From a virus, in IMG/VR virus record IMGVR_UViG_3300045988_093873: a stretch of 36,919 bases of DNA. The stretch is one strand, 5' to 3'. Below the pieces are notes generated by a model. That model did no database searches, was not told the DNA's origin, and saw nothing but the letters and a program-made list of their open reading frames with translations. The number at the start of each line of letters is the position of its first letter. Positions within the stretch are counted from its first letter, which is position 1. The translations under genes and the position numbers were made by a program. Below, piece after piece: positions 7,978-35,900 of this stretch.

Positions 7978-8319
7978 TCAGTCCCAGCGTTCCTCTGTCA
8001 GCGGTTCCTGCTTCTGTGGTTTTCTGTAACCATGCACTGCTTCATGGCACTCATGGCAAAGGCTTATAAGGTTTCTTTTCTTCACTCCATGCCACTCATA
8101 CCATATGTCCAGAGCCATCTCAGGATGTCTCTTCACGTAGTTTACATGGTGCACTGTCGTGGCTGCTGTGTATCTGTGATGTTCTCTGCACCTCTGGCAT
8201 TCATTGTGATCCATCTTCAACACCTGCTGCCTGACCTGCTTCCACCTGGTCCACACATAGAACCTGTGTATGTCGTTCGCTACGCACCAGCGCACGAACT
8301 CTGTTTCCTGTTGCGTCAT
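7978..8319 (-). CDS. HNH endonuclease (terminase-associated)
   Basis: 113 aa with CQRC...HHVNY...LCHECHEAVH. It lies just upstream of terS. Confidence 0.8.
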   Translation of the reverse strand: MTQQETEFVRWCVANDIHRFYVWTRWKQVRQQVLKMDHNECQRCREHHRYTAATTVHHVNYVKRHPEMALDIWYEWHGVKKRNLISLCHECHEAVHGYRKPQKQEPLTEERWD

Positions 8320-15680: not shown

Positions 15681-15819
15681 AGTAAATCCCTCCTTTCCGA
15701 TCTTTGTAGTATGTGAATCTGTATCCGGATTTAATGATCTCACCCAGATACTCCATTTCTGCCGGGTTCTGTTCCGGTCTCAGGCTCCATCCCTTCCCCC
15801 ATATCTCCTCCGGCTTCAC
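15595..15819 (-). CDS. Hypothetical protein (GTG start), overlapping both neighbours
   Basis: 74 aa. GTG at 15819 lies 10 nt after AGGAGGAA. The N-terminal two thirds look protein-like (EMEYLGEIIKSGYRFTYYKDRKGGIYFE). The C-terminal RRADEDRKRRNRHRH looks like an out-of-frame reading. Confidence 0.35.
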   Translation of the reverse strand: MKPEEIWGKGWSLRPEQNPAEMEYLGEIIKSGYRFTYYKDRKGGIYFESEPEGGKPEWMRRADEDRKRRNRHRH

Positions 15820-16234
15820 GTTTCTTCATTTCCTCCTGTAACCATGCTGAGTATGTATGTTTCCCAGTCTGTGAGGATATTGTGATCTTGCACTCCTGCA
15901 GCTTCTTGCAGGCTTTCTCCCACTCCTGGGCGTTCTTTATCAGTTTTCCTTTTGTATCCTTGAATCCTGCTGCCATCATGTCGTCAGTTTTCAGAATCCG
16001 CGTTGCAACAAATGCGTCTCTTGTATATACGCATACTTCACATTCTTTGTGAAAATGTCCCAGGGCTTTTATAAGGGCTTGCAGGTTCGTCTTGTGATAT
16101 GTCCCCTCAATGCTTCCGAATCCCTCTCTGGTTATCGGTGTGCCTTTGAATATCGTTTCGATCACGTACCCATATTTACGCTGCATACATTCCTGAGACT
16201 GTTTATCTGTCTCCAGATATATGTTTACCTTCAT
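15740..16234 (-). CDS. RNase H-like fold protein (putative)
   Basis: VNIYLETD..., ...TNLQALIKAL..., ...VCVYTRDAFV... and ...GKHTY line up loosely with RNase HI strands and helices. The canonical Glu is not obvious. Confidence 0.35.
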   Translation of the reverse strand: MKVNIYLETDKQSQECMQRKYGYVIETIFKGTPITREGFGSIEGTYHKTNLQALIKALGHFHKECEVCVYTRDAFVATRILKTDDMMAAGFKDTKGKLIKNAQEWEKACKKLQECKITISSQTGKHTYSAWLQEEMKKREAGGDMGEGMEPETGTEPGRNGVSG

Positions 16235-16998
16235 GCCCTTTCCCTCTTTTTCTTTGCTTTCTTCTTTTCCTGTTTTGGCAGTCGAACTGTTCTAATCAGA
16301 GTGTAAGATCGGTACTGGTAGCCTGTCAGATCATTCACGCCTTCATGCAATGAGTCTTTTTCCGCCTCCCAGCCCTTCGGCACTCTGACTTTTCCCCATG
16401 TTTTCCAGTGTTTATACACTTTTTTCTCTGGCTCCGGAATTGGAAGATTGCGTGATGCGGAATAGTTTGCCTCTCTCAGTCTCTTGTCCGTCTCCGGTGT
16501 CTTCGTTATGTAGTTGGCCAGTTTCTCAAACTCGCCTTTTTGATACAGAAGCTGATTCTGTATCTGTCCGTGTTTCCACGCTTTCGCAAGAATAACGTCC
16601 GTGTCAGGAATCCTGTTCACTATGATGTGAATGTGCCAGGCTCCCCTTGTACCGACTTCTATATTCCGCATCCATTTCAGTTCTGCTCCTCTTTTCTTGT
16701 ATTCCCTTCTGAGTATCTGCAGAAATGCTTTCCAGTCTTCCTTTGCTTCTTCCATGGATTCCGGTCTTTTGTCCTTCTCGTATGATAATCTTGTGAAATA
16801 ATCATCTACATCAAAATTGTTCCGGATCTTCCACCTTGCCAACCTCTCCCTGTTGTATCTGTTCCTCTTTGCCATCTGTTCCGGAGTGGCTTTCTTTTTC
16901 TCCTGCCTCTCCTGTCCTGGTGCTCCATACTTTGCCGTGTGATATTCATACACCTCTATGGCATTCCGGAACCTCATTCTTTTACACATGTAACTCAT
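16231..16998 (-). CDS. HUH-superfamily rolling-circle replication initiator (Rep)
   Basis: All three motifs are present in order: YFTRLSY (motif 1), GAWHIHIIVN (HUH, motif 2) and LANYITKT (catalytic Tyr Y..K, motif 3). Confidence 0.7.
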   Translation of the reverse strand: MSYMCKRMRFRNAIEVYEYHTAKYGAPGQERQEKKKATPEQMAKRNRYNRERLARWKIRNNFDVDDYFTRLSYEKDKRPESMEEAKEDWKAFLQILRREYKKRGAELKWMRNIEVGTRGAWHIHIIVNRIPDTDVILAKAWKHGQIQNQLLYQKGEFEKLANYITKTPETDKRLREANYSASRNLPIPEPEKKVYKHWKTWGKVRVPKGWEAEKDSLHEGVNDLTGYQYRSYTLIRTVRLPKQEKKKAKKKRERA

Positions 16999-17906: not shown

Positions 17907-18512
17907 CTAAAACTCAAATTCTACTGCAGGAGCTGTCGGCATTGGTGTATATCCGCCAGCCAGCTCCAGGCGTCTTATTGCTTTGCGTCGGCTTGCTTCG
18001 CTGTTGTCCCAGGCATATTCGTATCCATCCGGAGCCGGTCCGCGTTTTGTTTTCCCGTTACAACGATCAGTGATAGCTTGTCGACTCAAAAAATTCTTTT
18101 TCGCTGCTTCTCTCGCAGATCTGTAATATTCCACATCCTGTCCGCAACTGTCCAATTTCACGACTATTTTATTTCTGGAACTGTAACCGGTCAGCTTTCC
18201 AAGTTCCTGTCTGGGTATGTATGCTATATTGTTTATGTGATTCTCAGACTGCATTCCGTTCTTATGATACGGAACCGCACCGTCAGGAACAGGTCCTAAA
18301 AACGTCCTTGCAATCAGGGAGAGAACTATCTCCTCTTTCGCTTTTCCGTCTTTTGTGAGCTTCACAACCAGGCGCTGACTCCCTTTCATTTTTTTGTGAT
18401 AGGGAGTCATGCTGCGAAACTGTCCGGATTTCAAAGTTCTCCGGATGTTCCCCTCTGTGCTCGCCTGGTATTTGCCGTCATATCCTGGAATATCTTTCCA
18501 TCTTTCAATCAA
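17907..18512 (-). CDS. Free-standing HNH homing endonuclease (NUMOD4 / HNH_3 type with a C-terminal helix-turn-helix module)
   Basis: IERWKDIPGYDGKYQASTEGNIR is NUMOD4-like. It also has VPYHKNG...NHINNI and a C-terminal ...YYRSAREAAKKNFLSRQAITDRCNGK. I chose TTG at 18512, 6 nt after AAGGGAGGG. Confidence 0.7.
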   Translation of the reverse strand: MIERWKDIPGYDGKYQASTEGNIRRTLKSGQFRSMTPYHKKMKGSQRLVVKLTKDGKAKEEIVLSLIARTFLGPVPDGAVPYHKNGMQSENHINNIAYIPRQELGKLTGYSSRNKIVVKLDSCGQDVEYYRSAREAAKKNFLSRQAITDRCNGKTKRGPAPDGYEYAWDNSEASRRKAIRRLELAGGYTPMPTAPAVEFEF

Positions 18513-18525
18513 GGTCGTCCCTCCC

Positions 18526-18696
18526 TTATGCCGGCTTTTTCTGAGCCGACATGCTTGCACCCACCTTGACGCCTTTCAGGAATGTATCCATCAGTGTCTG
18601 CTTTGTGATGTTTACAGACTTCAAAAATGTCGTTAATTCTTCTGCTTCGGCTTTGTCTTCCATGTTCAACATTACTTCCATGTTCTTCTGTGACAT
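18526..18696 (-). CDS. Small hypothetical protein (56 aa)
   Basis: Below the ORF-track cutoff. ATG at 18696 lies ~10 nt after GAGGAG. Its stop TAA overlaps the RBS of the homing-endonuclease gene. Confidence 0.35.
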   Translation of the reverse strand: MSQKNMEVMLNMEDKAEAEELTTFLKSVNITKQTLMDTFLKGVKVGASMSAQKKPA

Positions 18697-20203: not shown

Positions 20204-20701
20204 ATGAGAAAGAAAATGCTCGCTCTGCTGCTGTGTGGAATTATGGCAGCTTCTCCGGCTCCTGTATGGGCCAGCTCCAAAAATGTTGCCGATCAAGACC
20301 AGACAGTAGATTCTGCTGACAATCTTTTATCCGGTTACACTTTGGACGGTCTTCAATCCTTGTATTTGTCAATCACGCCTGATATGTCATACTCAGACGT
20401 TGTTCTATTGATAGAAGATAGCGAACTCCCGTATTCAGAAGAAAAATACAATGGCAGTCGTGAATTGCAGGTTGCTTTTACAGACGGATGTACAGCTCAG
20501 AAATATAAAAAGGAATCTGGTGACTATTTAACAATCTCTTTTAATTATGCGGAAGGAGAGAATAGTTCAAATGACGTTCTTTCCAAATACAGTTTAAGCT
20601 CCTGTATATATTGTCCTGAATCTGGTCCTACTTTGATTAGTCTTTCTGATGGTCATTATTTTTCTTATAATGAACCAGGAAATATACAGTTATGTGTTTA
20701 G
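20204..20701 (+). CDS. Secreted or lipid-anchored protein (lysogeny-module moron)
   Basis: ATG at 20204 follows AAGGAGG. The signal peptide is MRKKMLALLLCGIMAASPAPVWA|SS. The LLLC lipobox is imperfect, so an SPase I site is as likely. Confidence 0.6.
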   Translation: MRKKMLALLLCGIMAASPAPVWASSKNVADQDQTVDSADNLLSGYTLDGLQSLYLSITPDMSYSDVVLLIEDSELPYSEEKYNGSRELQVAFTDGCTAQKYKKESGDYLTISFNYAEGENSSNDVLSKYSLSSCIYCPESGPTLISLSDGHYFSYNEPGNIQLCV

Positions 20702-21248
20702 TGGCTTGCTTCGCTGCGCTCACTGTGGTCAGGCTTTTTCTGGATTTACACAAAAAGCAAAGAAAAAAGCCGGTGGTTTTTACAAATATCCGTACTACAA
20801 ATGTCATGGGGCTTATCCTAATAAGCGTTGTATCAACCGTAAGATGGTTCCCGAATCATATATAGAAAAATACCTGCTTATAAATGTCAAAGATCTCCTG
20901 CAGGAGCATATTGCAGAATATGAGATTGCAAGTGCAAAGATTGTTGATTATGATTCCCGGAGAGCTACACTTCTGAAAAAAATTGATAAACTGAAAGATC
21001 TGTACATAAACGACATAATCACCATGGATGAATTAAAAATGGATAAAGAGAAATATATGAAAGAATTGGAAGATCTCCCACGCAACCAGAATCAGAAAGA
21101 TCTAGCTCCAATCAAAAAGCTCTTGAAAATGGATCTTGATTCGATATATAAGACGTTGGAACCGGCAGAACGCCGTCAGCTCTGGAGATCTGTCATTAAA
21201 GAAATTCAAATTGACGATCATAAGAATTTAAAGATTATTTTTTTATGA
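20649..21248 (+). pseudogene. Large serine recombinase, C-terminal fragment only (zinc-ribbon + coiled-coil); the catalytic resolvase and recombinase domains are missing
   Basis: From about 20691 the product is YVFSGLLRCAHCGQAF...YYKCHG...C, followed by a coiled coil (LKKIDKLKDLYINDIITMDELKMDKEKY). There is no RBS, and no S-x-x-Q catalytic N-terminal domain appears anywhere in the window. The 5' end overlaps the moron gene. Confidence 0.65.
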
Positions 21249-23106: not shown

Positions 23107-23586
23107 TTATAATCCAAACTGTTTTGCAATAATTCCAACTGCAATACCTAATATAGCTGTTAATAAGTAACTTGTTACTGTCCGCCACTTTTCCCCGTCT
23201 CTTGACTCAAGAGCTTCCAGTCTTGCGCTCTGCTGTCCCTGCTCTTTCACCATGTTCTCCATGTTGTTTGCAAGCGTCTGTACAGATGTAACTAATTCCT
23301 GGAGCTGTTGAACACTGTTTTCCAGAATTTCAATCCGTCTGTTCTGTCGGTTGTCTTCTTCCTCAATTCTTTTGCGGAACTCCTCATGTTCTGCTCTTGA
23401 AATCTGTTCATTTTCCATGCTTATTTCCTCATCATCTACGTCTGCATATTTGCGGCAGGAATACTCAATTATATCTAAATCCTGCTGTATATCCTCCAGA
23501 GGTTTTGCTTTCTCTTTATCTTTAATATACAGCAGTAAATCATAAATAGAAGACCATTGCCTGCTAATAATTTGTAATTTAGTCAT
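23107..23586 (-). CDS. xhlA: XhlA-like haemolysin/holin-associated protein
   Basis: A coiled coil (RIEILENSVQQLQELV...RLEALESRDGEKWRTV) is followed by a C-terminal TM helix (SYLLTAILGIAVGIIA). The N-terminal extension makes the start uncertain. Confidence 0.6.
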   Translation of the reverse strand: MTKLQIISRQWSSIYDLLLYIKDKEKAKPLEDIQQDLDIIEYSCRKYADVDDEEISMENEQISRAEHEEFRKRIEEEDNRQNRRIEILENSVQQLQELVTSVQTLANNMENMVKEQGQQSARLEALESRDGEKWRTVTSYLLTAILGIAVGIIAKQFGL

Positions 23587-23595
23587 GCTTCCCGA

Positions 23596-23790
23596 TTACT
23601 CAGTAATTTCCTCCATGCCTGCATCAATAAGGAGTTTTTTTACCTTTTCTTTTAACAGACGTGGAACTCTGTTATATTCCTCTTTTGCTTCTTCAATAGT
23701 ATCTTTACTTAAAATTTCAGTAACCCATAATTTTGCCATCATTTCTTTATCTCCTTTGCTCAATAACATTATAATTAAATTTCTACGCAT
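23596..23790 (-). CDS. XkdX-like small protein
   Basis: 64 aa with ...EEYNRVPRLLKEKVKKLL. Size and position between the fibre genes and xhlA match the PBSX xkdX slot. Confidence 0.4.
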   Translation of the reverse strand: MRRNLIIMLLSKGDKEMMAKLWVTEILSKDTIEEAKEEYNRVPRLLKEKVKKLLIDAGMEEITE

Positions 23791-24136
23791 AAACCAATTC
23801 GCTCATTTCCAGCAGGCAGTCTTTCAACATTTCGATCTGTTCTGCCTGCTCTGCAAATTTCTGTTCAGTGCTTTTTTCTTCCTTCGGAATATATTCCAGA
23901 TATTTTTCCGGTGATGCTCTTACAGTTTCCTCTGAAATCTTCTCCTGTCTTTCCCGGAACTGGTTGAAATCATATTCATACACTGCCTGTTCGATGTGTT
24001 CCGGATTCTCCGGATCTCCACCTGAATAAGTCTCTGTTACGATATTTTCATTCAGGCAGATCATTACATCTACTTTTCCGTCAGGCAGCGTATTCCAGGT
24101 TACAGGATCCTGCTTTTCTGTAAATCTTGCTTTCAC
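23783..24136 (-). CDS. Conserved fibre-adjacent protein (XkdW position), function unknown
   Basis: GTG at 24136 lies 6 nt after AGGAGGG. The 117-aa ORF overlaps the RT 3' end by 56 nt. Confidence 0.45.
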   Translation of the reverse strand: MKARFTEKQDPVTWNTLPDGKVDVMICLNENIVTETYSGGDPENPEHIEQAVYEYDFNQFRERQEKISEETVRASPEKYLEYIPKEEKSTEQKFAEQAEQIEMLKDCLLEMSELVYA

Positions 24137-25310
24137 GGCTTACCCTCCTTTTCGCTTTCTCAAATATCTTATCTACGTTATACTTTTCTCTGAAATATTT
24201 AGAATCGGAATGTTTGAACCATCCGTAATATGCTATACACCGGTACGCAAGATCTAATGGTATCGCTTTTCCTTTCTCCACATACTTCCCAGCTTTTACA
24301 AATGCCCTGCGTCCTCTCAGGAAAATGCTCCGTCTTACCTCTGTGCGATCCCGATAGATTTTGAATCCCATCATATCAATAGGTTCTCCATGATGTTTCC
24401 CGTCTTTGTCTATCCAGTCGATTTGGAACAACTTCCAATCTGGTTTTACCGTCAGATCTAAATACTCATTCATGTACTTAACCAAAAGCTTCATTGCTTT
24501 TCTTACGTCTGCCTTTCTGCTTCCAATCAGTAGGAAATCGTCCATGTAGAACAAGACATGATTAATCAGCCTGATCTCTTCTATTGTTCCGTCTCGGTGT
24601 TTCTTCCTCTTGAACAGCTTTTCAGCAGCATAATGATAAGCTGCGCTCAGATAATAATTACAGAGCCATTGGCTCAAGTATGATCCAATTGACAGTCCCT
24701 GATTGAATGAGTCAATTAAAACAAAAGTCAAATAAAGCAGATCCTCATTTCTGACCTGCTTCTCTAACATTCTTTTCAGTTTTCTCCTGTTAATGGATGG
24801 ATAACATTTCCGGACATCTCCCTTTGCTGCTATTCTGGTCTTGCCCGGATTCTTACGGATCCAGTTCTCAATTGCTGTCTTTCCATAAACCTGTCCCCTT
24901 CCTGGAATACTTGCGCACTGATAAGTTCCTATTTTTCTTTCAAATAGTTCTCTCAATCCGTTTGTGGCTACATAATCGTATATCTGCTGTTTTATGCACT
25001 CAACGCCTATATCTCTTACTTTTCCTGAATTTCCATCCAGCCTTGCGCTTGTCTTTATAGGATCAAAAGATACTTTTCTAAGTTTTATTTCTTCTTCCAT
25101 TCCTGCCGCTGCTGTGCAGACTAAATTATGTAACCAGTCTTTAAGGTTTTCTTTTATAATTCTGTGTATCTGTCTGGCTGTAATGATATTCGTATAGTTT
25201 GCCAGAAATCTGGCTGTATCCATACGGTTCCATTTATCGCTTAGACATTCGTAGATACATGCGGTTATAAAGTTCTGATCTAATGTTATGTTTTTGCAAT
25301 ACCGTTTCAT
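24081..25310 (-). CDS. Diversity-generating retroelement reverse transcriptase
   Basis: 409 aa. The RT motifs include CASIPGRG, GDVRKCYPSI, the LSIGSYLSQWLCNYYL motif 4 ([I/L]GxxxSQ, the DGR hallmark) and FYMDDFLLIG (the YxDD catalytic motif). A TR/VR pair lies immediately upstream. Confidence 0.9.
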   Translation of the reverse strand: MKRYCKNITLDQNFITACIYECLSDKWNRMDTARFLANYTNIITARQIHRIIKENLKDWLHNLVCTAAAGMEEEIKLRKVSFDPIKTSARLDGNSGKVRDIGVECIKQQIYDYVATNGLRELFERKIGTYQCASIPGRGQVYGKTAIENWIRKNPGKTRIAAKGDVRKCYPSINRRKLKRMLEKQVRNEDLLYLTFVLIDSFNQGLSIGSYLSQWLCNYYLSAAYHYAAEKLFKRKKHRDGTIEEIRLINHVLFYMDDFLLIGSRKADVRKAMKLLVKYMNEYLDLTVKPDWKLFQIDWIDKDGKHHGEPIDMMGFKIYRDRTEVRRSIFLRGRRAFVKAGKYVEKGKAIPLDLAYRCIAYYGWFKHSDSKYFREKYNVDKIFEKAKRRVSRESKIYRKAGSCNLEYAA

Positions 25311-25616
25311 TCGTTTCTTGATATAAGGGGTTTTCGGTGTTTCTACTCACCCCACACATGAATCAACTGCATTCATGGTCCTTGTCTCAGGCCCCTATGC
25401 TCCCGATCACAAGGTTCGGCTTCAATCAAATTTCGGTGATGCCCCACGCTGCTGTTGCAGGCTCCGTCCTGCGGAGCGAAATGTAACACAAATATCAAAT
25501 CATTTTCAAGAAAATCCGGAAACGATATTCCAGTTCGCATTGCCAACGCCATTGTTCGCATTCAGAATCCAGAGGCCGTAAATCGTGCCATTGTTCAGAT
25601 TGCCCAGGGACAGCCA
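25311..25616 (-). ncRNA. DGR template RNA region (TR plus a ~205-nt spacer preceding the RT)
   Basis: The stretch between TR and the RT start is non-coding and contains a hairpin GCTCCG-tcctg-CGGAGC (25461-77). Transcript ends were not determined. Confidence 0.55.
25516..25616 (-). repeat. DGR template repeat (TR)
   Basis: This 101-nt segment matches 25767-25867 at 89/101 positions, and all 12 mismatches are A in the TR sense strand. Read in the VR frame, the TR encodes WLSLGNLNNGTIYGLWILNANNGVGNANWNIVSG (9 AAY codons). Confidence 0.92.
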
Positions 25617-25701
25617 GGGAACAGGAACCGCTACCTCGTGTTACAAGTCCGTAATTTATTGCTATTCTGCTTTTTCGAAGTTGATTAGTTATCAGTTACA
25701 T

Positions 25702-25719
25702 AGAGGGGACAGCCCCTCT
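25702..25719 (-). other. GC hairpin one nt after the target stop codon (DGR target-recognition hairpin candidate)
   Basis: AGAGGGG-acag-CCCCTCT has a 7-bp stem and a 4-nt loop. No U-tract follows in the sense direction. It lies 47 nt 3' of the last VR/TR-matching base. Confidence 0.5.
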
Positions 25720-25720
25720 G

Positions 25721-28024
25721 TCAGGCTGCCGCCTGCCATTCACCCCGTGTGCCGTTCGGTGAAACGCCGGAAACGATATTCCAGTGCGCACTGCCAACGC
25801 CATAGTCCGCACTCAGAAGCCAGAGGCCGTAAACCGCGCCATAGTGCAGAGCGCCCAGGGACAGCCATTCTCTTTGGCCGCTCGTGCCTGAATCTGTATA
25901 CAGTCCATTGCAGAATCCTGTTGTACTTCCGGCTTTTGTTTCCGTCGGTACCATGATTCCCAGGGCTGGATCAACAAAGCATTTTGAGATGTATTTCCAT
26001 GATGCTGCTGTGTATGTTACCTGAGCCGCTACTTTCTTGTATCGTGTCTTTGCTGCATTCATATCCGTTGTAAGCAGTGACGCATCCATACAGATGTATA
26101 CGTCTCTCTTTGGTGTTCCGTCTTCATCTGTAACAATATCCATAAATACATTACTGAGGACTTCATAAGCACCGTATCCGGTTTCGATTCCCTGGATCTT
26201 GAATGGATTCTTGTTATCTGTATTTGAGAACGGTGATCCATCTGATCCAAGCACGCTGTCGGTTGAGCCGGTCCGCCATGGCATTGTTGAGATGCAGGTC
26301 GTTAATGTCGTGTTGAATGGTTCTGTGTCCAAATATATTGCAGAATTTGTATCGTCTACCGGTTCAATCTTCAAGATCTTCACGTCATATGCGAGGTTGT
26401 GCATGTATGCGTAATATCTATCTTTATTTGTATTTGAACCAATATCCCCGACAGATACATAAGACCCAACAATATAATTGTTGGCTTTTGCTTTTGGGAG
26501 AATCACTCTTGTTACTCCGGTTTCTGCAACTGCTGCCATTTCCTGCATTGAATAAGAATTACATCCAGCCATAACGCTTCGGCTGTTCGTTGTTGCATAT
26601 AAAATAATCATCATGAGCTGTTTGTAAAAGAGATCCCAGTTTGTTGTTCCCACGTACATTGAGCCTTTCTTTCTCATGTATGCGATCAGTCCTGTGTATG
26701 ATACTGGTTTTCCTCCTTTCTGGCTTCCGTTTGCCAGAATCAATCCAGCGGAGCTGTACGGCACTCCATCAATGTCTCCGGCTCCGTATTTTCCGTGGAT
26801 CATAAAAGGTGAAATTGTTCCGTCTGGATTAATTGACTCTCCCATTGGTCTAAGGCCAAGGGCTTCGTTCGGACTGTCTGAATAATGATAATCTACATAC
26901 TCAGGATTGTCTGTGATTCCAACCCATGCGGACATTGTGACCTCTCCCACATCTACTTTTCCGGTCTTTTTGAAATCCGGTTGTCCCTGCAGTGCAGTCA
27001 CATGGTTAAAGCCTTTATTATCTACGGTAAAATTACATGGAAAGTGCATGAATACGCCAATCTCCCTGTAATCATCCTGTCCGATTGCTGTATTTGTGGA
27101 CGGTTTTCTCACCAGTCCTTCATTGTCGTTCAGTTTCACGCCTGTTGGACTGGTAGAAGTGTCATACTTGTAGATTCTCGTTGTATATACTTTTCCAGTC
27201 CTGCGGAGGGCAAAGAAATTTGAAAGTGCGTTTTCAATTCCTCCACCTGCTGCAGTAATATTCTGAATCTGTTTATTTGCTTCTGTCTGTAAATTGTTCA
27301 CCGCAGTTTCTCCGGTCGTTTGGAGATCTGCCTGCAGCTGTGTTCCTTCTGTGATTTTTTCTCCCAGGGATGTGTTCAGATTAGAGGCGGTTTTATTTGT
27401 TGAATCCAATCCTGATTTTGTCTGTGTCGCAGTTGCATTTGATGAATCCAGGTCGGTTTTGGTTTTTCCGGCCGCTGTGTTTGAATCATCCAGATTCTTT
27501 TTTGCTGTATTTGCTGTTGAGACTGTGGTATCCAGCTGGCTTTTTAAAGCAGTTCCCTGTGTAATATCAGAGTCAAGTCCCTGTTTTAATGTCGTTCCTT
27601 GAGAAATATCTGATTCCAGATTTCCTTTTAACGTCTGTGCGGTGCTTATGGATCCATCCAGATCAGTTTTTCTTTGTGCAGCCGTTGTATTTGTACTGTC
27701 CAAATTCTTTTTTGCTGTATTTGCTGTTGAAACTGTAGTATCTAGCTGACCTTTTAAAGCAGTTCCCTGCTCGATATTCGAATCAAGACCCTGTTTCAAG
27801 GCTTCTGCTTTCTTTACATCTGCTGCAAATGTCTGTTCTGTATGTTCGTTTTTCGCTACTTTTTCGGTTATATCTGTCTGCGCTTCGAGAATGTCAGTTT
27901 TAACCTGATTGTATTCGTTGTTTTCATCCGAGACTGCATTTATCGCATTAACAATCGCATCTCTGACATCTCGCCCTTTTTGCGCTTTTGCAATCTGATC
28001 TGTGTATTTTTTTACGTTTGCCAC
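25721..28024 (-). CDS. Tail fibre / receptor-binding protein, the DGR target
   Basis: 767 aa. The N-terminus (KAQKGRDVRDAIVNAINAV) is typical of fibre anchors. Repeats with a 70-aa period (LDTTVSTANTAKKNLD...) form a shaft. The VR lies within the C-terminal globular part. Confidence 0.8.
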   Translation of the reverse strand: MANVKKYTDQIAKAQKGRDVRDAIVNAINAVSDENNEYNQVKTDILEAQTDITEKVAKNEHTEQTFAADVKKAEALKQGLDSNIEQGTALKGQLDTTVSTANTAKKNLDSTNTTAAQRKTDLDGSISTAQTLKGNLESDISQGTTLKQGLDSDITQGTALKSQLDTTVSTANTAKKNLDDSNTAAGKTKTDLDSSNATATQTKSGLDSTNKTASNLNTSLGEKITEGTQLQADLQTTGETAVNNLQTEANKQIQNITAAGGGIENALSNFFALRRTGKVYTTRIYKYDTSTSPTGVKLNDNEGLVRKPSTNTAIGQDDYREIGVFMHFPCNFTVDNKGFNHVTALQGQPDFKKTGKVDVGEVTMSAWVGITDNPEYVDYHYSDSPNEALGLRPMGESINPDGTISPFMIHGKYGAGDIDGVPYSSAGLILANGSQKGGKPVSYTGLIAYMRKKGSMYVGTTNWDLFYKQLMMIILYATTNSRSVMAGCNSYSMQEMAAVAETGVTRVILPKAKANNYIVGSYVSVGDIGSNTNKDRYYAYMHNLAYDVKILKIEPVDDTNSAIYLDTEPFNTTLTTCISTMPWRTGSTDSVLGSDGSPFSNTDNKNPFKIQGIETGYGAYEVLSNVFMDIVTDEDGTPKRDVYICMDASLLTTDMNAAKTRYKKVAAQVTYTAASWKYISKCFVDPALGIMVPTETKAGSTTGFCNGLYTDSGTSGQREWLSLGALHYGAVYGLWLLSADYGVGSAHWNIVSGVSPNGTRGEWQAAA
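25767..25867 (-). repeat. DGR variable repeat (VR) in the 3' end of the fibre gene
   Basis: It encodes WLSLGALHYGAVYGLWLLSADYGVGSAHWNIVSG and ends 14 codons before the stop. Confidence 0.92.
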
Positions 28025-28026
28025 TT

Positions 28027-28344
28027 TTATTCCCCCTTATTTACAAGGCAGTCTGAATATTCTTTTGACTTTAAATCTCTTACTTCTGACAGAACAGAGG
28101 TAAGCATGTAATCCATTAACGACGCAGGGATTCCATACTGTGCCATTGCTCCAAATACCACGTTTCGAATTTCTTCTGTTCTTTTGTCCAGGATTGCCCC
28201 TAACGGAGGAGCTTCTACTGTTTTCTCTACTGTATTATTATCCTCTTTCTGTTCCTGTGCGGTGCTTTCTTCTGTGTCCGACTCGGACACCTTTGTTTCT
28301 TCCTTAATAGTTTCTTTATTGTCCTTTTCTTTTACTTCATTCAT
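28027..28344 (-). CDS. Small acidic protein between Tal and the fibre, function unknown
   Basis: 105 aa. The N-terminal half is acidic and looks disordered, and the C-terminal half looks helical (GIPASLMDYMLTSVLSEVRDL). It carries copy B of the 25-nt repeat. Confidence 0.5.
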   Translation of the reverse strand: MNEVKEKDNKETIKEETKVSESDTEESTAQEQKEDNNTVEKTVEAPPLGAILDKRTEEIRNVVFGAMAQYGIPASLMDYMLTSVLSEVRDLKSKEYSDCLVNKGE

Positions 28345-31300
28345 TATGCTGTTTTCTCCTTTTCCTCATAGAGGTTTTGAATCAGTTTAAGCATTACCGG
28401 AATTAATACACGAAAGTTCCAGTCTTCCGGTTCTCCTTTTTCATTTAACTGTGCCGCTTCCGGGAAAATGCTGTATATGTCTTCTGCATAAAATCCCGGC
28501 ATTTTCTTTCCGTTTAACCAGTCTTCTGGACTGAGATAATTTTCTTTGTATTTAAACCATATCACTGGAACATTCAGCATTCTTTTCGCTTCATCTAATG
28601 TCATGTTTGCAATATGATCTTTATATCGCTTGGATGATGATGACAAATAAGCCACTGTTGCTCCGTCTCTTGCAAATACCATATGGCCTCCAGATGTCAC
28701 ATGGGAAAGATTAAATACTTTAAATGCGTCAGAACCATCCGAAAACGTTGAAGTACCCGTATGTATCTCTAACCCTCCATCAAAAATGAAAGCATGTGAT
28801 CGCATACTTAACGTTGCATATCCGGTGGTTATTTTTCCGCTTGCAACCGTAAAATTTCCGATAGTTCCTTTCTTCGCTGCAAATGAACCGTCTGTGTTAA
28901 TTTTAAAATAAGTATTCGCAGTAACCAAACCGTTGAAGTTAATTTTTGATGCGTTAATCTTAACGCTCTGCGCTGTCTGGTTAATTGATGATGCAATTTC
29001 TCCAGCAGATACTTTCGACTCTATTTCCGTCTCTGTCTGCGTGATTCGAGAGCTGAGAGTACTTTCCGCACCTTTCGCACGGGAAACCTCTGACGTGATC
29101 GAGTTTTCTGCAACTGTGATCCTGGATATTGCAGTTTCGGCCGTACTTTTTGCGGTGTCAGCTGTATTCTTTGCAGTGTTTGCTGTTGTCTGTGCTGCAT
29201 CTGCCTGGGCTTTTGCAACACTAATATCCTGATCCTGGATTCTTTCCCAGGATGCCGTTTTGCTTCCTGATGTTGTTCCGGAGCATTTCCATAGCAGATT
29301 TATATTGTTTCCGTAGCTTCCATGATTCGGACTTTCTGGATATGTCCCTTTTGTCAGTTCAGTTGCTGTATAGTTTGGCAGGTTCTCGATTGTTCCTGTC
29401 GCTTCTCCGGTTGTTCCAGTGACTGACGCTATCTTGAATCCGTAGAAACTATCGCTTGAAGTATCTGTACGCCAATATACATAAAATTCCGATGATGGGA
29501 CAAAAACAGATGCACCAGCAATGTCAGTTCCTCCCAGCTTCGCTGCAAGTTTCATTGTTCCGTTATCACTGTAATAAATCTTTACATAATCATAATTTAC
29601 GCTTTCCGTTCTGGAGTCTGATGAAAATGTGATCTTTAATCCAGGAACCTTATATGTATATCTGTACGCATATCCGGTTGTGATATCATAGTAAATATCT
29701 CCTATGTGCAGTGACTTTAAATCGTCGCTTGTCCAGGAGGACGCTGGTTCATTTGATGTTGTCGGTATTTTACTCCCGTAGAAATTACCATTTTTTTCTG
29801 ACACTGCCTGACGTACCGTAGTCACTTCAAGAGTGATGTTATCCGTCGCCATTTTGATAGCCGCCGTCATTTGTTCCGTTGTCGAGTAGCTTTTCAGTTT
29901 TTCATCTGTGTCTGCTTTTGCATTCTTTTCAGCATTATTCGCAGCGTTTTGTCCTGCCTTTGTAGCATTGCTTTCCGCAGCGTTTGCCGCATCCTGTCCA
30001 GCTTTTACTGCTGCATTGTATTTTTCTTCCACCTGCACTGTTGTTGTGTAGGTCTTTGACACTTCAAGGGAAATGCTGTCTGCCGCTTGTTTGATTGCAC
30101 TGTTCATTTCCAGTGTCGTAGAATAGTTTTTCAGTTTTGTATCTGTATCGTCTTTTGCATTCTTTTCTGCCTGATCTGCCGCGTCCTGGCCTTCCTGTAC
30201 TGCGTTTGCATAGAGTTTATTTGCCATCTCCTGTGTCGCATATGTCTTTGACACTGTTGAGAGGATATTTGTCTCGGTCAGTGTTATTGCTGATCTGAGT
30301 TTTTCTTCCTCTCCCTTTGCCCTGGATACTTCTGCAGTTATGAGTCCCTCCTGGACCTCGATTTTGGAAAGCGCAGATTCTGCTGTACTCTGAGCTGCTT
30401 CAATGTCCTTATCTTTTACCCTTACCCATCCATACTCATTACTGTCATTTTTCTGATACTGATAAGCATAGCCGGTTGTGGTATTGAAAAAGAGATCTCT
30501 TTCGTGTTCCTGCCTCAATTCGTCTGTCGTCCAGGCAGATGCCGGATTGTTTTCGGATGTTGGTTCATAATTTCCATACCAGTTTCCGGATTTCCTTTTC
30601 AGCTGCTGCTCCAAACTCGAAACAGAAAGAGTTATCTTTCCGTCCATGGCTTTCAGGGATGTTGTGACCTCTTTTAATATTGCTTTTTTGTTTTCTGAAT
30701 CCCCGTCCGATATTTTTGTTTCAATGTAATTTTTGCATTCTGTTGACAGAGCTTCTGTTTTAATCGAACCGGCAAGGATTCTCTCCCCTATAATCTGGCC
30801 ATCCAGTGTCATTCCGATCGTGTACGGGCCGTTATATCCATTGTGAGATCCGCCGATTCCGTTTTTATTTATCTGTAGTATATTTGTTGCCTGTTCTTTG
30901 TCCGGTGCATCCATATACAGATCCCGAAGCCAGAGACCGTTTTTATCAAATTCTGTGAGTTTGTATCCGCCTTTTGCTCCCGTCATTTGTTTCGTAAGAT
31001 TATCAATTGCGGATTTCATCCAAGACGCTTGAACTCTTCCAGCCTCTGTTGTTTCCTGCCGGATCTGAGTAAATGTCCCAGTAGTCTGATCTGTGAAAGA
31101 CTGCTGCAGATTTTCTCCCAGTGTCAACTGCGCCTGATCTGGTTGCTGCAATGGGATTTTCATTTCCATAACCGGCAATACTTTTTTCATTCCATACGGA
31201 ATTGCATTGCAGAGCACACGGTCTCCTATATCAAAAGAATCATAATCCTGGCCAAACAATGACAAATCCACTGCAGTCAGGGAAATGACAAGGTTCTCAT

Positions 31301-32180
31301 ACTGCTGCGTCGTCAGATATTCTGTTGCTTTTTTCAGGAGGTTCGCTGGCGTTGCTACATCGTCCCACTTCTCTGTTTTCCACACCCATCCGAAACTTTC
31401 TACCGCCTCTTTGCTGTATATGTAGTCTTTTCCGTCGTTTACGGATGTAATGTCCACATTCTTTTCAAGACGTTCAAATTCGGATGCGTTTTCGTCTGTT
31501 TCCTGTTCGATTGCTGCCCCCAGCGGGATCAGAGCTGTGATAACATCGTCGGCAGTCATTGTCTCTGAGTAATCAAGCAGGTTCTCTCCGAATTGAATTG
31601 GTTGTTCGCAATACTTGCCGTATTCCTGTATATTTATCCAGTCAAGGTATAGCTTGTCTTCTTCGTGTCTGAGTCTTAGGTATCCGCCCAGGCGATCAAC
31701 CAGTTTCTCCCTGATCGCTTCAAGGGTGTTTTCTCTGTCAGTTATCCTGTACAGAGAGTCATTGCTGTCATGGATCGTAACAACCCCGATATAGATTTTC
31801 TTTCTGTCCTCAACCTGATTATTGTGCAGCTGTAGCCACGCGTCTAACATTTCCCTGGGCGACATGTCGTGCCATTCCTGCTGCGGCAGAATCGTATCTG
31901 CCAGGAACGACAACGCTCCGGTTGCTTTAATCGGTTGATTTTTAAACCGGTCTTTTTCTCTTGTGCGGACTTCTCCGTAAAAGATTTCTGTTTTATCTCT
32001 GTACACTGAAATCATGCTTTTTCTGTTATGAATATCATTGTACAGAGGATTTAAAGCCGGTACTTTCAGGGTTAACTCTCCTGCATATCCTGTCTGCAGG
32101 TCCAGCTCCGGATTGATAACTGCTGCCTCCCGGTCTCCTGGATAATACAGGATCTTGCCATCTAATTTAATTTTGTACAT
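28344..32180 (-). CDS. Tail-associated lysin-like / tail tip protein (Tal; prophage-tail N-terminal domain) with a C-terminal Peptidase_S74 intramolecular chaperone domain
   Basis: 1278 aa and follows Dit. The N-terminus MYKIKLDGKILYYPGD... is typical of the phage minor structural protein / prophage tail endopeptidase family. The C-terminus SSSSKRYKDHI...GFYAEDIYSIFPEA...LIQNLYEE is S74-like. Confidence 0.75.
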   Translation of the reverse strand: MYKIKLDGKILYYPGDREAAVINPELDLQTGYAGELTLKVPALNPLYNDIHNRKSMISVYRDKTEIFYGEVRTREKDRFKNQPIKATGALSFLADTILPQQEWHDMSPREMLDAWLQLHNNQVEDRKKIYIGVVTIHDSNDSLYRITDRENTLEAIREKLVDRLGGYLRLRHEEDKLYLDWINIQEYGKYCEQPIQFGENLLDYSETMTADDVITALIPLGAAIEQETDENASEFERLEKNVDITSVNDGKDYIYSKEAVESFGWVWKTEKWDDVATPANLLKKATEYLTTQQYENLVISLTAVDLSLFGQDYDSFDIGDRVLCNAIPYGMKKVLPVMEMKIPLQQPDQAQLTLGENLQQSFTDQTTGTFTQIRQETTEAGRVQASWMKSAIDNLTKQMTGAKGGYKLTEFDKNGLWLRDLYMDAPDKEQATNILQINKNGIGGSHNGYNGPYTIGMTLDGQIIGERILAGSIKTEALSTECKNYIETKISDGDSENKKAILKEVTTSLKAMDGKITLSVSSLEQQLKRKSGNWYGNYEPTSENNPASAWTTDELRQEHERDLFFNTTTGYAYQYQKNDSNEYGWVRVKDKDIEAAQSTAESALSKIEVQEGLITAEVSRAKGEEEKLRSAITLTETNILSTVSKTYATQEMANKLYANAVQEGQDAADQAEKNAKDDTDTKLKNYSTTLEMNSAIKQAADSISLEVSKTYTTTVQVEEKYNAAVKAGQDAANAAESNATKAGQNAANNAEKNAKADTDEKLKSYSTTEQMTAAIKMATDNITLEVTTVRQAVSEKNGNFYGSKIPTTSNEPASSWTSDDLKSLHIGDIYYDITTGYAYRYTYKVPGLKITFSSDSRTESVNYDYVKIYYSDNGTMKLAAKLGGTDIAGASVFVPSSEFYVYWRTDTSSDSFYGFKIASVTGTTGEATGTIENLPNYTATELTKGTYPESPNHGSYGNNINLLWKCSGTTSGSKTASWERIQDQDISVAKAQADAAQTTANTAKNTADTAKSTAETAISRITVAENSITSEVSRAKGAESTLSSRITQTETEIESKVSAGEIASSINQTAQSVKINASKINFNGLVTANTYFKINTDGSFAAKKGTIGNFTVASGKITTGYATLSMRSHAFIFDGGLEIHTGTSTFSDGSDAFKVFNLSHVTSGGHMVFARDGATVAYLSSSSKRYKDHIANMTLDEAKRMLNVPVIWFKYKENYLSPEDWLNGKKMPGFYAEDIYSIFPEAAQLNEKGEPEDWNFRVLIPVMLKLIQNLYEEKEKTA

Positions 32181-32926
32181 TACAATGATCCCCTCCTGTA
32201 AACAATGTCCAGTGTTCCTGATCCGGCAAATTCAAGTGTTACGTCAGATCCGTATACAACAATATCTGGAAAGCGATTTCTCCCCAGTGTCAGAGTGTAG
32301 GTTTCTCCGCACGCTGTCACCTTTAGTCCTGTTGATCCAATACTTTTTACATTCAGCACCGGAACGATTGCTACATCTCCAGAATATACTGTATATGATC
32401 CTGATCCAGATATTGTGATCCCGGCTCCCTGATCTATCACTCCAGTTTCGAAGTCGAACGGATCCCAGAGCCATTCCTCCGTTGAGTCAGCAAGCGAATA
32501 TTTATAAGGATCTGCTTTCGGAACGCTTAAATGAAATTGACCGATCTCTCTTGACCGGTCAAAATCTGTTATGTACGCTCTTCCGGTCCAGTAATATACT
32601 GGATCGTTTGAAAATGTTATCCTTATATTTTTACCATGCAGTCTGTTTCGAATATTCGAAATAAAACTGTCCCAGTCTTCGCGTGGCTTCTTACCTCCGA
32701 ACAGAATATCAATTTCCCTTGATTTATATACTGGTCTGCCGGTGATTGCTTCTGATCCATCCAGAAAACCGTCAGCTCCTGGGACATCAATGAAATACGT
32801 CTCTACCTCTGGTTCCCCGATATAATCATTATTGCCAATTGCGCAGCCCCAGTCTGCTAATGTATCTATGACTTTCCCAGAGTTTTCAACAGTGATTGTT
32901 GCTTTTATTGTCAATACATTATTCAT
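32180..32926 (-). CDS. Distal tail protein (Dit)
   Basis: 248-aa ORF directly after the tape measure. The sequence is Sipho_tail-like (FIDVPGADGFLD...YWTGRAYITDFD). Confidence 0.7.
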   Translation of the reverse strand: MNNVLTIKATITVENSGKVIDTLADWGCAIGNNDYIGEPEVETYFIDVPGADGFLDGSEAITGRPVYKSREIDILFGGKKPREDWDSFISNIRNRLHGKNIRITFSNDPVYYWTGRAYITDFDRSREIGQFHLSVPKADPYKYSLADSTEEWLWDPFDFETGVIDQGAGITISGSGSYTVYSGDVAIVPVLNVKSIGSTGLKVTACGETYTLTLGRNRFPDIVVYGSDVTLEFAGSGTLDIVYRRGSL

Positions 32927-35900
32927 CTGTAAGCTGCCTCCTTTGCTATTCTTCCAAGTTCATTATTGATTGCAGGTGCAAGTTTCCCAGCCCATTCTCT
33001 GTTGTCAAAATAGATCTCCTGTCCTGCGCTCATTACCTGGATCAGCTGTGCCAGCATTCCGGTTATTCCGGTTATATCTGTTTTGTTCAGGTTATTAGCT
33101 GGTTTCATTGAACTTGTATCTAACTGCATATCCATCTGGACATCTTTCATTGCGTCAGCAACAAGTCCCTGGCTCTTTTCAATTCCTGTCGCAAGACCTT
33201 TCATAAAGTCCGGCATCCATTCTTCATAGTAATGTAGCGGACCCTCATCCGGTCTTGAGAAATGCAGCCACGATCTGATTGTGTTCGCCACGTTTGATAC
33301 TGCATTCGTTACGTTACCTATGCAGTTCCTGATTCCGTTTGCAATACCATTCACGAAATCCTGCCCCCATCGAACCGCCTGTCCTGGCAATCCCGTTATA
33401 TAACTGATTGCACTAGAAAATCCATTTACAACAGCAGAATATACGCCTGACAGTGCTCCGGATATTCCAGATACAACGCTGTTAAATGTATCAACAGCTC
33501 TGTCTTTCATGTTTCCAGCGTATTGTATAACTGTTTCCTTTACGTTCTGCCACGTTTCGGACGTTCTCTCTCTGATGTTATCCCAGTGCTCTGAGGCTCT
33601 GTCCTTTAAATTCTGGATTGCTTCTGTTGCGCTTTCTTTCAGTTTTTTCGCATTATTAACAACAAATCCTTTGATCGCTGTCCATGCTTTTGCTGCTGCC
33701 TGAGAAGCAGAATCCCAGATTTTTGATACTGTGTCCCGGAATCCTGTAAATAATGTTGTGACTGCGGTAACAAGCCCTTTTGCCAGAGCGGACACAACCT
33801 GCTTAATTCCGGTCCATATTGTTTGCGCTGCGTCTTTGATATTTGTCCAGATATTTGATGCGTCTGTTTTGAGCTTATCAAAGTTTCCTGTTACCAGGTC
33901 AATCAGTAAGATCACCAGTGCAAGAATTGTATTTTTCAACAGTTCCCATGCGCCCTGTGCAATCGTTACAAGTCCCTGCCAGATGTTCTGCAGTGTATTA
34001 ACTGCATTCTGCCATAGTGTTGTGATCGTTGTCACGATTCCGGATATAACCGGATTCTGCATCATTGTTGTCCAGATATTTGTAAAGAAATCTGATACCT
34101 GCTGCCAGATGCCGGACCACCACGCCGGAACACCTGCAAAAAATGTAACAACGTTGTTCCATGCCTGCGGTATTGTTACGGTAAAAAAGTTTACAATTCC
34201 ATCCCATATCTGCATGAAAAAGTCTGATACCTGCTGCCAGATTTCAGACCACCATTCCGGAACTCCTGAGAGAAAATCCATCAGTGTGCTCCACGCCTGC
34301 GGTATTGTATCTGTAAAAAACGATACAATTTTTTGGACGACTGCATTTACTGCATCCCGGAACCATTCGCATTTTGTGTACAGCAATACCAGAGCTGCCA
34401 CAATCGCGGCTATGACAGCAATAACTGGGTTTGCGGCTATTACTCCAAACAGTGCGGTAAAAGCACCTTTTAGCTTTCCAATAATACTCGTTATTGTTGT
34501 TAAAGTTTTCATCTTAGAAAACAGTCCTGTAATTGCAGATATTCCGGTTGCAACCTTTCCAACCATTATCAACAACGGACCAATCGCGGCGACTATCAGT
34601 GCAATTGTAGCAACTACTTTCTTCTGTCCTTCACTCATTCCATTGAGCTTTTCAACAAACCCTTGAATAACCTCTACCGCTTTTCTGATATATGGCATCA
34701 GGATTTCTCCGAAGGCAATTGCCAGCTCCTGCAAGGCACTCTGCAAAGTTGTAAGTTGTCCAGAAAGATTATCCTGCATGGTTTCAGCCATGTTTTCAGC
34801 GGATCCTTTGCAATTATCAATATTTTTTATAAGTTTCTGGTAATCTTCATCTGATGAATTGATTATTGCGAGCATGCCGCTCATGGCTTCTTTTCCAAAG
34901 ATAGCTGTCGCTGCCTGCGTCTGCTCTGCTTCTGTCATTCCTCCCATGGTTTCGCGTAAAAAATCCATGGTTTCACGCAGTGTTTTCATGCTGCCATCTT
35001 CGTTCTGCAGTGCTTTATTGTACAGTCTTACATTTTCTGTGGTTCCCTCCTGCAACTGAGTCAGTGTTTCGTTTGCAGTCGCAAGCTCTGTTTGCTTTAT
35101 TTCCAACGTTGCGGCAGCGTTTGAGGCTTCTGTTGACTCAGATCCGTACTTTGATACCGCATCATTGTAAGCCTGCTGTGCTTTATCTGCTGCCAGTGAA
35201 GCTTTTTGCACTCTGAGCATTTGCTTGTCAATTTTAGCTTGATCTATAGACGTAGCCGATTCTGTTGCGTAGAATCCCCACTTTTCCATTGCGTCTCCAA
35301 CATCTTTTGACGGTTTTATCATGTTTGTCAGGGATGATCTCAACTGCGTTCCGGCTGACGACGCTTTGATTCCGCTGTTCGCCATAAGGCCGATAGCGAC
35401 TGCTGCATCTTCTGCGCTATATCCAAGTGCACCTGCTACCGGTGCAATATACTTGAATGTTTCTCCCATCATTCCAACGTTCGTATTAGCGCTGGATGAT
35501 GCCTGTGCCAATACATCCGCAAAATGAGAACTATCTTCTGCCTCCATTCCGAAGGCTGTGAGTGCGTCTGTAACAATATCTGACGTAGTTGCAAGGTCTT
35601 CTCCAGATGCTGCCGCAAGATTCATAATTCCAGGGAGGCCGTCGTACATCTGCTGTGCGTCCCATCCGGCCATTGCCATGTATCCCATGGCGTCTCCGGC
35701 TTCTTTTGCAGAGAATTTTGTCTGTGCTCCCATCTCTCTTGCACGTTCTCGCAACTTATCCATGTCTTCCGCAGATGATCCGGATATTGCGGCCACATTG
35801 GACATGGAGCTGTCAAAATCTGCCGCAGTCTTTACTGCCGCTGTTCCAAGTCCTGTCACTGCCGCCGTAACCGGAAGCATTTTTTCTCCGGCAGATGTCA

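Follow-up and report, generated by a model that had tools for sequence, protein, structure and literature searches.

An Avd-less diversity-generating retroelement at a putative tail-fibre gene of a predicted Blautia phage

Introduction

The 36,919-nucleotide (nt) viral DNA analysed here (IMG/VR record IMGVR_UViG_3300045988_093873, referred to as the window) contains two closely similar 101-nt sequences, one inside the 3′ end of a gene for a 767-amino-acid (aa) protein and the other in the intergenic stretch between that gene and a reverse transcriptase (RT) gene. The initial annotation, made from the letters of the sequence and its open reading frames (ORFs), interpreted this arrangement as a complete diversity-generating retroelement (DGR) that varies the C-terminus of a tail fibre. 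The locus raises the questions whether such an element is functional, whether the protein that it varies carries the receptor-binding tip of a fibre, and what stands in this lineage in the place of Avd. The best-studied phage DGR, that of BPP-1, diversifies a tail fibre and requires Avd, a basic four-helix bundle that is found in about 74% of DGRs.

We find that the locus is very probably a functional DGR, carried by a phage of roughly 37 kb that is predicted to be temperate and siphovirus-like and to infect Blautia, with retrohoming read from the sequence of the window and its relatives. Gut phages harbour many DGRs, which are well documented in catalogues (PMC5758913, PMC8008677), and this element is therefore a further case of a known system. 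Its modestly new features are a covariation-supported helix resembling a stop duplex in an Avd-less clade, a co-inherited ORF that resembles fibre chaperones, and a family of variable domains that has no recognisable resemblance to the scaffolds known from DGRs.

Template and variable repeats

The template repeat (TR, 25516-25616) and the variable repeat (VR, 25767-25867) form a direct repeat with an offset of 251 nt, and the sense strand of both is the minus strand. They are identical at 89 of 101 positions, and each of the 12 mismatches coincides with a TR adenine, at which VR carries G, C or T. The probability that 12 mismatches would all land by chance on the 23 adenines among the 101 positions is 1.1e-9. 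The intergenic TR comprises 23 A, 29 G, 26 T and 23 C, and 11 of its adenines are unchanged in VR. VR lies in frame within the target gene and ends 14 codons short of the stop codon (25721-25723).

The repeat begins at a codon boundary, and TR adenines occupy the first (13) or second (10) codon position and never the third, being distributed over nine AAY codons and the codons ACG, ATT (twice), TAC and ATC. Because adenines are confined to these two positions, stop codons cannot arise by adenine substitution. The TR would be translated as WLSLGNLNNGTIYGLWILNANNGVGNANWNIVSG and the VR is translated as WLSLGALHYGAVYGLWLLSADYGVGSAHWNIVSG, a change of 11 residues; the C-terminal domain of the target has 14 variable residues, corresponding to a calculated number of combinations on the order of 1e13. 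The initial annotation had given the same repeat pair, with 12 adenine-only differences, 11 unchanged adenines, nine AAY codons, 11 changed residues and a 14-codon tail, and all of these values were reproduced.

A repeat finder lengthens the match to 107 nt (25510 and 25761), at the cost of an A-to-C and a T-to-G mismatch. In 52 of 53 relatives, VR has a fixed CG at positions 102-103, where the TR has AT; therefore the diversified unit ends at or before position 101, and we keep the 101-nt boundary originally proposed. No second TR-like site is present in the window, where the best other match agrees at 37 of 78 non-A positions.

The final 18 nt of TR (25516-25533; 25767-25784 in VR) can form a hairpin, CTGGAA-TATCGT-TTCCGG. 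A T-rich run, ATTTTCTT, follows this hairpin in the TR copy only and was flagged by a terminator scan. Across the clade, TR/VR homology has its 3′ edge at a conserved TTC motif. The hairpin or the TTC motif may have a bearing on where cDNA synthesis starts.

Variation among related phages

From IMG/VR we assembled 57 loci with an RT at least 90% identical to that of the window and 21 more distant loci. Population counts refer to 53 TR/VR pairs from related phage genomes, the window included. Of 647 TR/VR mismatches in these pairs, 633 fall at TR adenines and 14 elsewhere. The 53 genomes contain 52 distinct VRs and only 13 distinct TRs, and all 23 TR-adenine columns are polymorphic among the VRs, with A at 46%, G at 23.5%, T at 16% and C at 14% of these sites. 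The mean pairwise difference is 15.9% for VR, 4.3% for the 400 nt upstream of VR and 2.2% for TR, and none of the 53 VRs contains a stop codon. The large, adenine-directed VR variation and conserved TR that the initial annotation had set as a check on the element are both found in this population.

Twelve genome pairs with identical TRs and 0-3 differences per 1000 nt upstream of VR differ at 11-18 of the 101 VR positions. Where the 1 kb upstream of VR is identical between genomes, 13-18 VR positions still differ, as in L020 and L052 (no flank differences, 13 VR differences); one additional pair with near-identical flanks has identical VRs. The divergence of VRs between near-identical genomes, together with the confinement of variation to adenines, indicates that the DGR is active and that VR diversification has been recent and repeated.

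Four IMG/VR contigs (L027, L033, L039 and L057) have at about position 5695 of each locus a 'TR' that lacks 6-13 adenines. Three of them (L027, L033 and L039) also hold a VR, and the replacement bases in their TRs mostly equal the VR bases of the same contig, which points to either short-read assembly chimeras between the repeats or real VR-to-TR conversion that cripples the element.

The reverse transcriptase

The RT gene (24081-25310, minus strand) starts 205 nt past TR in the sense direction and encodes a 409-aa protein with an isoelectric point (pI) of about 9.8 that carries the motifs LSIGSYLSQ and YMDD, in agreement with the length, spacing and motifs reported initially. The protein matches Pfam RVT_1 at 3e-9 and phrog_1423 (reverse transcriptase) at 2e-72, and the sole PDB-sequence match of the single RT query is 8ub7, a 328-aa 'Reverse transcriptase'. 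The search tool does not name the organism of this entry, which we take to be the bRT of Bordetella phage BPP-1 from the bRT-Avd-RNA cryo-EM series (10.1101/2023.10.23.563531).

When a family profile built from 21 RT members was searched against all PDB sequences, 8ub7 was again the best match (2.4e-15, 59.7 bits), with the runner-up at 5.6e-7 and group II and retron-type RTs at only 1e-5 to 1e-6. The placement against RT classes that the initial annotation had called for comes out on the DGR side: as measured by profile scores rather than by a tree, the RT is closer to a DGR RT than to group II intron or retron RTs.

In the segment I208-G-S-Y-L-S-Q214, residues I208, G209, S210 and Q214 are invariant in the 21 family members, as is Y255-M-D-D. 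Residues K72, R74, I76, D138, I181-G182, Q187 and YMDD of bRT align with K97, R99, I101, D165, I208-G209, Q214 and Y255-MDD of the RT, and all of these counterparts are invariant in the family. R74 and I181 of bRT promote adenine mutagenesis, and [I/V/L]GxxxSQ is the signature of DGR RTs (PMC7826257). With both an IGxxxSQ motif (not QGxxxSP) and a YxDD box present, the protein is classified as a DGR-type RT. A tblastn search of GenBank phages with the RT retrieved RTs of Bordetella, Faecalibacterium, Lactobacillus, Butyrivibrio, crAss-like and Bacteroides phages.

Cassette architecture

Beyond the close relatives, a de novo search recovered the same compact layout, with one adenine-biased repeat pair, in 28 of 30 loci that are more distant (RT identity 37-65%): VR is followed by a short gap, TR, about 130-220 nt and then RT. 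These loci include Hespellia stercorisuis DSM 15480 and metagenome-assembled genomes (MAGs) of Blautia, Sedimentibacter, Bacilli and Lachnospiraceae. All 18 loci that were compared have in common the RT, the C-terminal region of the target and a small ORF whose sequence overlaps the 3′ end of the RT gene, and none of the 18 has an avd gene between target and TR.

The cassette is accordingly best described, on its gene order, as an Avd-less target-TR-RT element of Architecture A1, which lacks accessory genes and accounts for 29% of catalogued DGRs (PMC5758913). The same authors concluded that Avd-independent retrohoming must exist (PMC5758913). The word 'complete' in the initial annotation holds for an element of this architecture, and does not extend to Avd, which was found neither in the cassette nor in the window ORFs scanned. 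Our cassette shares with A1 the order target(VR)-TR-RT, a single adjacent target, the lack of an avd, HRDC or MSL gene, the association with phages and the very low number of non-adenine substitutions (PMC5758913). It differs in that RNA elements were not described for A1 (PMC5758913), whereas a stop-duplex-like helix is present here in an Avd-less clade; a later survey of DGR RNAs took in Avd-containing DGRs only (10.1101/2023.10.23.563531).

A megablast search of GenBank phages gave no DNA-level match, and the nearest relatives are unannotated metagenomic contigs. At the protein level, the RT is homologous to those of the uncultured human-gut phages MT835469, MT835477 and MT835485 (37-42% identity), which also have target homologues and one of which, MT835485, has the small ORF. 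RTs of the cultured Butyrivibrio phages Arawn and Idris, Faecalibacterium phage FP_Epona and Lactobacillus phage LBR48 are 27-31% identical to that of the window.

Decayed versions of the cassette were found in four contigs of 18-322 kb (L091-L094). They keep the target gene and the small ORF whole, with the RT reduced to residues 221-409 and the TR deleted. These cassettes adjoin an integrase and lie in apparent bacterial chromosomes.

RNA elements around the template

Three RNA elements accompany the TR. The first, helix P1, is formed by sequences on both sides of TR and encloses it. Its 5′ strand with an invariant GG (25635-25650, minus strand) lies just upstream of TR, with the core TGTAACAC at 25638-25645 and the GG, here followed by A25648, at 25649-25650; its 3′ strand (25482-25492, minus strand) has the core GTGTTACA at 25482-25489, 27 nt past TR. 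The GG is invariant in 17 divergent loci. Four nt past P1 lies the hairpin P2 (25461-25477, minus strand; GCTCCG-CAGGA-CGGAGC), and 16 nt ahead of the RT start codon lies the stem-loop P3 (25327-25353, minus strand; GGGGT...GAGTAG...CCGAAA...ACCCC).

The sequence of P1 changes in nearly every lineage while the pairing is retained, as in TACAGCAC/GTGCTGTA, TATCGAAAAAA/TTTTTTCGATA and TATGGGGCGC/GCGTCCCATA. An unanchored best-helix search proved too noisy in this AT-rich sequence and was replaced by an anchored permutation and by counts on a MAFFT alignment. In the anchored partner-swap test on 14 divergent loci, strands paired with their own partners gave a sum of 116.5, compared with 77.3 +/- 5.0 for permuted partners, and none of 100000 permutations reached the observed value. 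On the MAFFT alignment, which was not fitted to structure, 82.4% of cells are paired, compared with 65.5% after shuffling and 18-48% in slid controls; the covariation score is 0.63 against 0.33 (0/500 shuffles), and double-sided changes occur at all eight pairs. P3 was recovered by RNAalifold as five pairs with compensatory changes in four; 91.3% of its cells are paired against 75.0% in shuffled alignments, its covariation is 0.66 against 0.33 (0/500 shuffles), and its loop motifs GAGTAG and CGAAA are conserved. P1 and P3 are supported as helices by covariation. For P2, compensatory variants in relatives (GCTCCA/TGGAGC, GCTCTG/CAGAGC and CCCGCT/AGCGGG) were identified only by eye.

Only covariation brings this structure to light. 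Taken as a whole, the fold of the TR region does not exceed shuffled sequence in stability (z -0.4). An Rfam scan of 23500-28500 with E up to 1 returned a chance match only and no DGR RNA family.

In BPP-1, the 3′ end of avd forms a duplex with the spacer that is followed by a short stem-loop; together they constitute the 'cPRT Stop', which is required for cDNA synthesis, and like duplexes have been reported in 207 of 278 Avd-containing DGRs (10.1101/2023.10.23.563531). By analogy, P1 and P2 are the evident counterpart of the BPP-1 'cPRT Stop' in an Avd-less clade, and P1 presumably has the function of that duplex. A TR-enclosing helix in such a lineage suggests that the RNA logic of the 'cPRT Stop' is independent of Avd.

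The diversified protein

The target gene (25721-28024, minus strand) encodes 767 aa with N-terminal coiled-coil repeats and a C-terminal variable domain. It follows genes for a tape measure protein (32923-36633), Dit (32180-32926), a 1278-aa Tal-like protein (28344-32180) and a 105-aa ORF, and it precedes genes for a protein that we label XkdX-like from its match to phrog_1382, a haemolysin-type protein (phrog_937), a holin and a GH25 endolysin. The N-terminal 260 aa of the target consist of coiled-coil repeats with a weak match to the reovirus sigma-1 shaft, and residues 241-765 match phrog_17147 (function unknown) at 2.5e-122. An AlphaFold2 (AF2) model of the last 299 aa has a mean predicted local distance difference test score (pLDDT) of 69.7 and is confident for residues 30-110. 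A Foldseek search of this C-terminal model against PDB gave nothing at E <0.06, and the C-terminal profile (A6) and the sequence gave no PDB match. No match to C-type-lectin, FGE or DUF1566 domains was found, and Pfam scans, which included the TR-encoded peptide, were negative. These results speak neither for nor against the C-type-lectin fold that the initial annotation had expected, and this fold is a candidate for the variable domain. A possible resemblance of VR to the Mtd-like 'CLec1' consensus carries no weight here.

On its position after Dit and Tal and its N-terminal coiled coil, and not on homology, the target is likely a tail fibre with a receptor-binding tip.

A genuine DGR could alternatively act on a protein other than the receptor-binding fibre, such as a side fibre or a mucus- or glycan-binding adhesin, in which case the property tuned would not be primary host recognition. 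This alternative draws on the lack of a function assigned by homology (phrog_17147 is of unknown function and no Pfam domain is present), on the lack of a confident model for the variable-domain fold and on the upstream 1278-aa Tal-like protein, which could itself carry receptor-binding domains. It is nevertheless unlikely, as the gene occupies the classical fibre slot after Dit and Tal and ahead of the lysis genes, begins with a coiled-coil repeat shaft and is followed, past the cassette, by a chaperone-like gene related to DUF4376 fibre chaperones; the BPP-1 DGR, moreover, diversifies a tail fibre. We therefore retain the receptor-binding fibre as the likely target.

The coiled-coil shaft contains a 210-nt (70-aa) tandem duplication whose copies are 80% identical (window 27441-27589 and 27651-27799). 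Target length among relatives ranges from 530 to 1346 aa, with the C-terminal variable domain retained. Database entries of the target family are mostly fragments of 187-520 aa and fall into many small clusters at 90% identity, which fits with VR heterogeneity breaking assemblies and splitting the clusters.

The small acidic open reading frame

An acidic 117-aa ORF (23783-24136, minus strand) starts with GTG at 24136, begins MKARF and overlaps the 3′ end of the RT gene by 56 nt, an arrangement that may couple its translation to that of RT. Each of the 18 divergent loci has it directly after RT, as do all other contexts that were examined, and it is kept in the four contigs that retain only RT residues 221-409 and have lost TR. 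Its homologues share the MKARF start, have a pI of 4.25 +/- 0.16 and lengths of 104-131 aa, and form a family of 364 representatives at 50% clustering. The ORF has no Pfam, PHROG or PDB sequence match. Its AF2 model (pLDDT 90.4) consists of a long beta-hairpin domain and one C-terminal helix, not the four-helix bundle of Avd type, and has no structural neighbour in PDB. An XkdW-like identity for this ORF, of the kind known from Firmicutes phage tail modules, received no support from Pfam, PDB sequences or Foldseek and was rejected.

Several family members of 195-245 aa have an additional C-terminal DUF4376 domain (31.8 bits, above the gathering score, in P0424), and the third structural neighbour of the small ORF in BFVD is a DUF4376 protein. 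DUF4376 is found in the tail-fibre chaperones that have been demonstrated by experiment in Alteromonas phages V22 and A5 and whose genes lie immediately downstream of the fibre genes (PMC7289586, PMC10579305). The small ORF is more likely a fibre-chaperone-like protein than a new accessory factor, and on the simplest reading the TR-RT module lies between the fibre gene and a chaperone-like gene that partners it.

The ORF might instead encode a DGR accessory factor on which cDNA synthesis or retrohoming depends and which stands in for Avd in this lineage, and such a role has points in its favour. The ORF follows and overlaps RT in the 18 divergent loci and the other contexts examined, homologues were seen only beside an RT or RT remnant, Avd was not found in the lineage, and the protein is acidic (pI 4.25), like the CH1 protein (pI 4.7) of Avd-less Bacteroides DGRs (PMC5758913). 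We consider this role improbable, however. The longer family members carry a fibre-chaperone domain (PMC7289586, PMC10579305), the ORF is intact where RT is truncated and TR is lost, and an acidic protein of beta structure and one helix is unlike the nucleic-acid-binding Avd. Target, RT and small ORF are moreover inherited as one block, and linkage cannot separate the two roles. Compared by description and not by sequence, the family resembles CH1 of the Bacteroides 'Lineage 3a' DGRs in being small, strongly acidic, devoid of a recognised motif and restricted to Avd-less DGRs, and differs from it in length (104-131 aa here, 160-169 aa for CH1) and in its link to DUF4376 fibre chaperones (PMC5758913). 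A broader form of the same idea is that the Avd-less RT clade runs a distinct mode of mutagenic retrohoming, in which the small ORF would replace Avd together with N- and C-terminal extensions of RT and a P1-P2-P3 scaffold; this proposal is likewise doubtful, and we favour the chaperone-like assignment.

Target hairpin, transcription start and priming

A GC-rich hairpin, AGAGGGG-CTGT-CCCCTCT (25702-25719, minus strand), with a 7-bp stem and a 4-nt CTGT loop, lies one base past the target stop codon and 47 nt beyond VR, and most divergent relatives also show a comparable hairpin. It is a candidate for a target-recognition hairpin or cruciform, or for a weak terminator. The hairpin lacks a U-tract, and therefore read-through from the fibre gene into TR may occur.

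In three distant relatives (L062, L084 and L085), extended -10 boxes (TGATATAAT, TGTTATAAT and TGCTATAAT) are found 8-10 nt upstream of the invariant GGA before TR. These boxes suggest that in such relatives the foot of helix P1 is where the DGR RNA begins; no clear equivalent is present in the window.

A template:primer duplex between GATATT (25491-25496) and AATATC in TR (positions 88-93), placed by analogy with Sp A56 of BPP-1, was rejected because TR positions 88, 89 and 91 are diversified in the population. As these three positions are diversified, cDNA synthesis would start 3′ of position 91.

Proposed mechanism and its support

We propose that an RNA spanning the region just upstream of TR, the 101-nt TR and the 205-nt spacer, possibly produced by read-through from the fibre gene or from a predicted start near the GGA at 25648-25650, would fold into P1 around TR, followed by hairpin P2 and stem-loop P3. 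The 409-aa RT would copy TR into cDNA, faithfully at U, C and G and with random nucleotides inserted opposite the 23 adenines, and the cDNA would take the place of VR, its homologue in the 3′ end of the gene for the 767-aa protein. Avd would not be needed. The likely outcome is continual variation of the receptor-binding fibre tip and, with it, of host range. The anatomy of the repeats, the DGR-type RT, the adenine-restricted hypervariation, helices P1 and P3 and the lack of a recognisable Avd are observed; the cDNA pathway with its priming site, the receptor-binding role and the fold of the variable domain are inferred.

Several observations weigh against this interpretation. Hairpins of BPP-1 type have a stem of 7-10 bp and a GRNA loop and lie 4-34 bp from VR in phage DGRs (PMC3240598); the loop of the hairpin after the target is CTGT, and its distance of 47 nt falls outside that range. 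A promoter scan upstream of TR in the window gave nothing convincing. The priming site was not located, two candidates being indistinguishable, namely the ATTTT-CTTG-AAAAT hairpin directly after TR and the TR-terminal hairpin described above. On the side of the target, residues 251-299 of the AF2 model, which contain VR, have a pLDDT <50; the protein has no match to Mtd, TvpA or C-type-lectin Pfam families; and its role as a tail fibre is positional only, phrog_17147 having no assigned function. Pfam and NCBIfam models detected no Avd among the cassette neighbours or in roughly 28 window ORFs.

That the TR/VR pattern is a fossil of past activity and the cassette of this genome is dead, which gains from the existence of decayed relatives (L091-L094) and from the limit that current activity is not demonstrable from one genome, is very improbable given an intact RT ORF with every catalytic and signature residue, the retention of all 23 TR adenines and the differences at 11-18 VR positions between genomes with the same TR and near-identical flanks (0-3 differences per 1000 nt).

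Compared with the BPP-1 DGR (mtd-avd-TR-brt), the element shares adenine-specific transfer from an AAY-rich template to the 3′ end of a gene in tail-fibre position, an RT with IGxxxSQ, YMDD and counterparts of bRT R74 and I181, a cPRT-Stop-like duplex of stretches that lie upstream and downstream of TR followed by a hairpin, and a GC-rich hairpin downstream of VR. It differs in the lack of Avd, in that TR directly follows the target gene, and in that its RT is 81 aa longer and only about 25% identical to 8ub7 over the core, as estimated from the alignment. TR/VR homology stops at position 101 with no extended pair of initiation of mutagenic homing sequences (IMH/IMH*), the target has no detectable similarity to Mtd, and the hairpin downstream of VR differs in loop and distance as noted above.

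The locus leaves the current picture of DGR biology unchanged. It adds an uncultured example with strong in silico support in a phage of Blautia, an abundant gut commensal, and is a possible natural system for host-range variation in Lachnospiraceae phages. The compactness of the cassette, about 1.8 kb from VR to the RT stop codon, would make it attractive for targeted mutagenesis if its independence of Avd is true.

Phage genome and host

The window resembles a complete phage genome of about 37 kb, and related IMG/VR contigs are 36-39 kb long. It encodes terminase, portal, protease, capsid, tail and lysis proteins, an integrase-like protein, Rep, ParA/ParB and a single-stranded DNA-binding protein (SSB); all genes in the cassette region are on the minus strand. 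The nearest genome match is a Blautia MAG with a 91% identical RT, and the named sources of target homologues are Blautia producta and Blautia sp. From this gene content and these matches, the phage is predicted to be temperate and siphovirus-like, with a Blautia host (Lachnospiraceae, human gut).

Genes for ParA (14448-15248), a ParB-like protein (12712-14484) and a replication initiator (16231-16998) are accompanied by an integrase-like gene on the opposite strand (20649-21248), and the phage may have a phage-plasmid lifestyle or be able to choose between integrating and persisting as an episome. In the replication module, a 164-aa ORF (15740-16234) has a weak match to RNase H (Pfam E 6e-4, below the gathering score); its product could in principle process RNA-cDNA hybrids and is probably that of a replication gene. 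Two genes encode HNH-type endonucleases (17907-18560 and 7978-8319), one of which resembles NUMOD4-HNH homing endonucleases and one of which lies beside the gene for the small terminase subunit (7544-7861).

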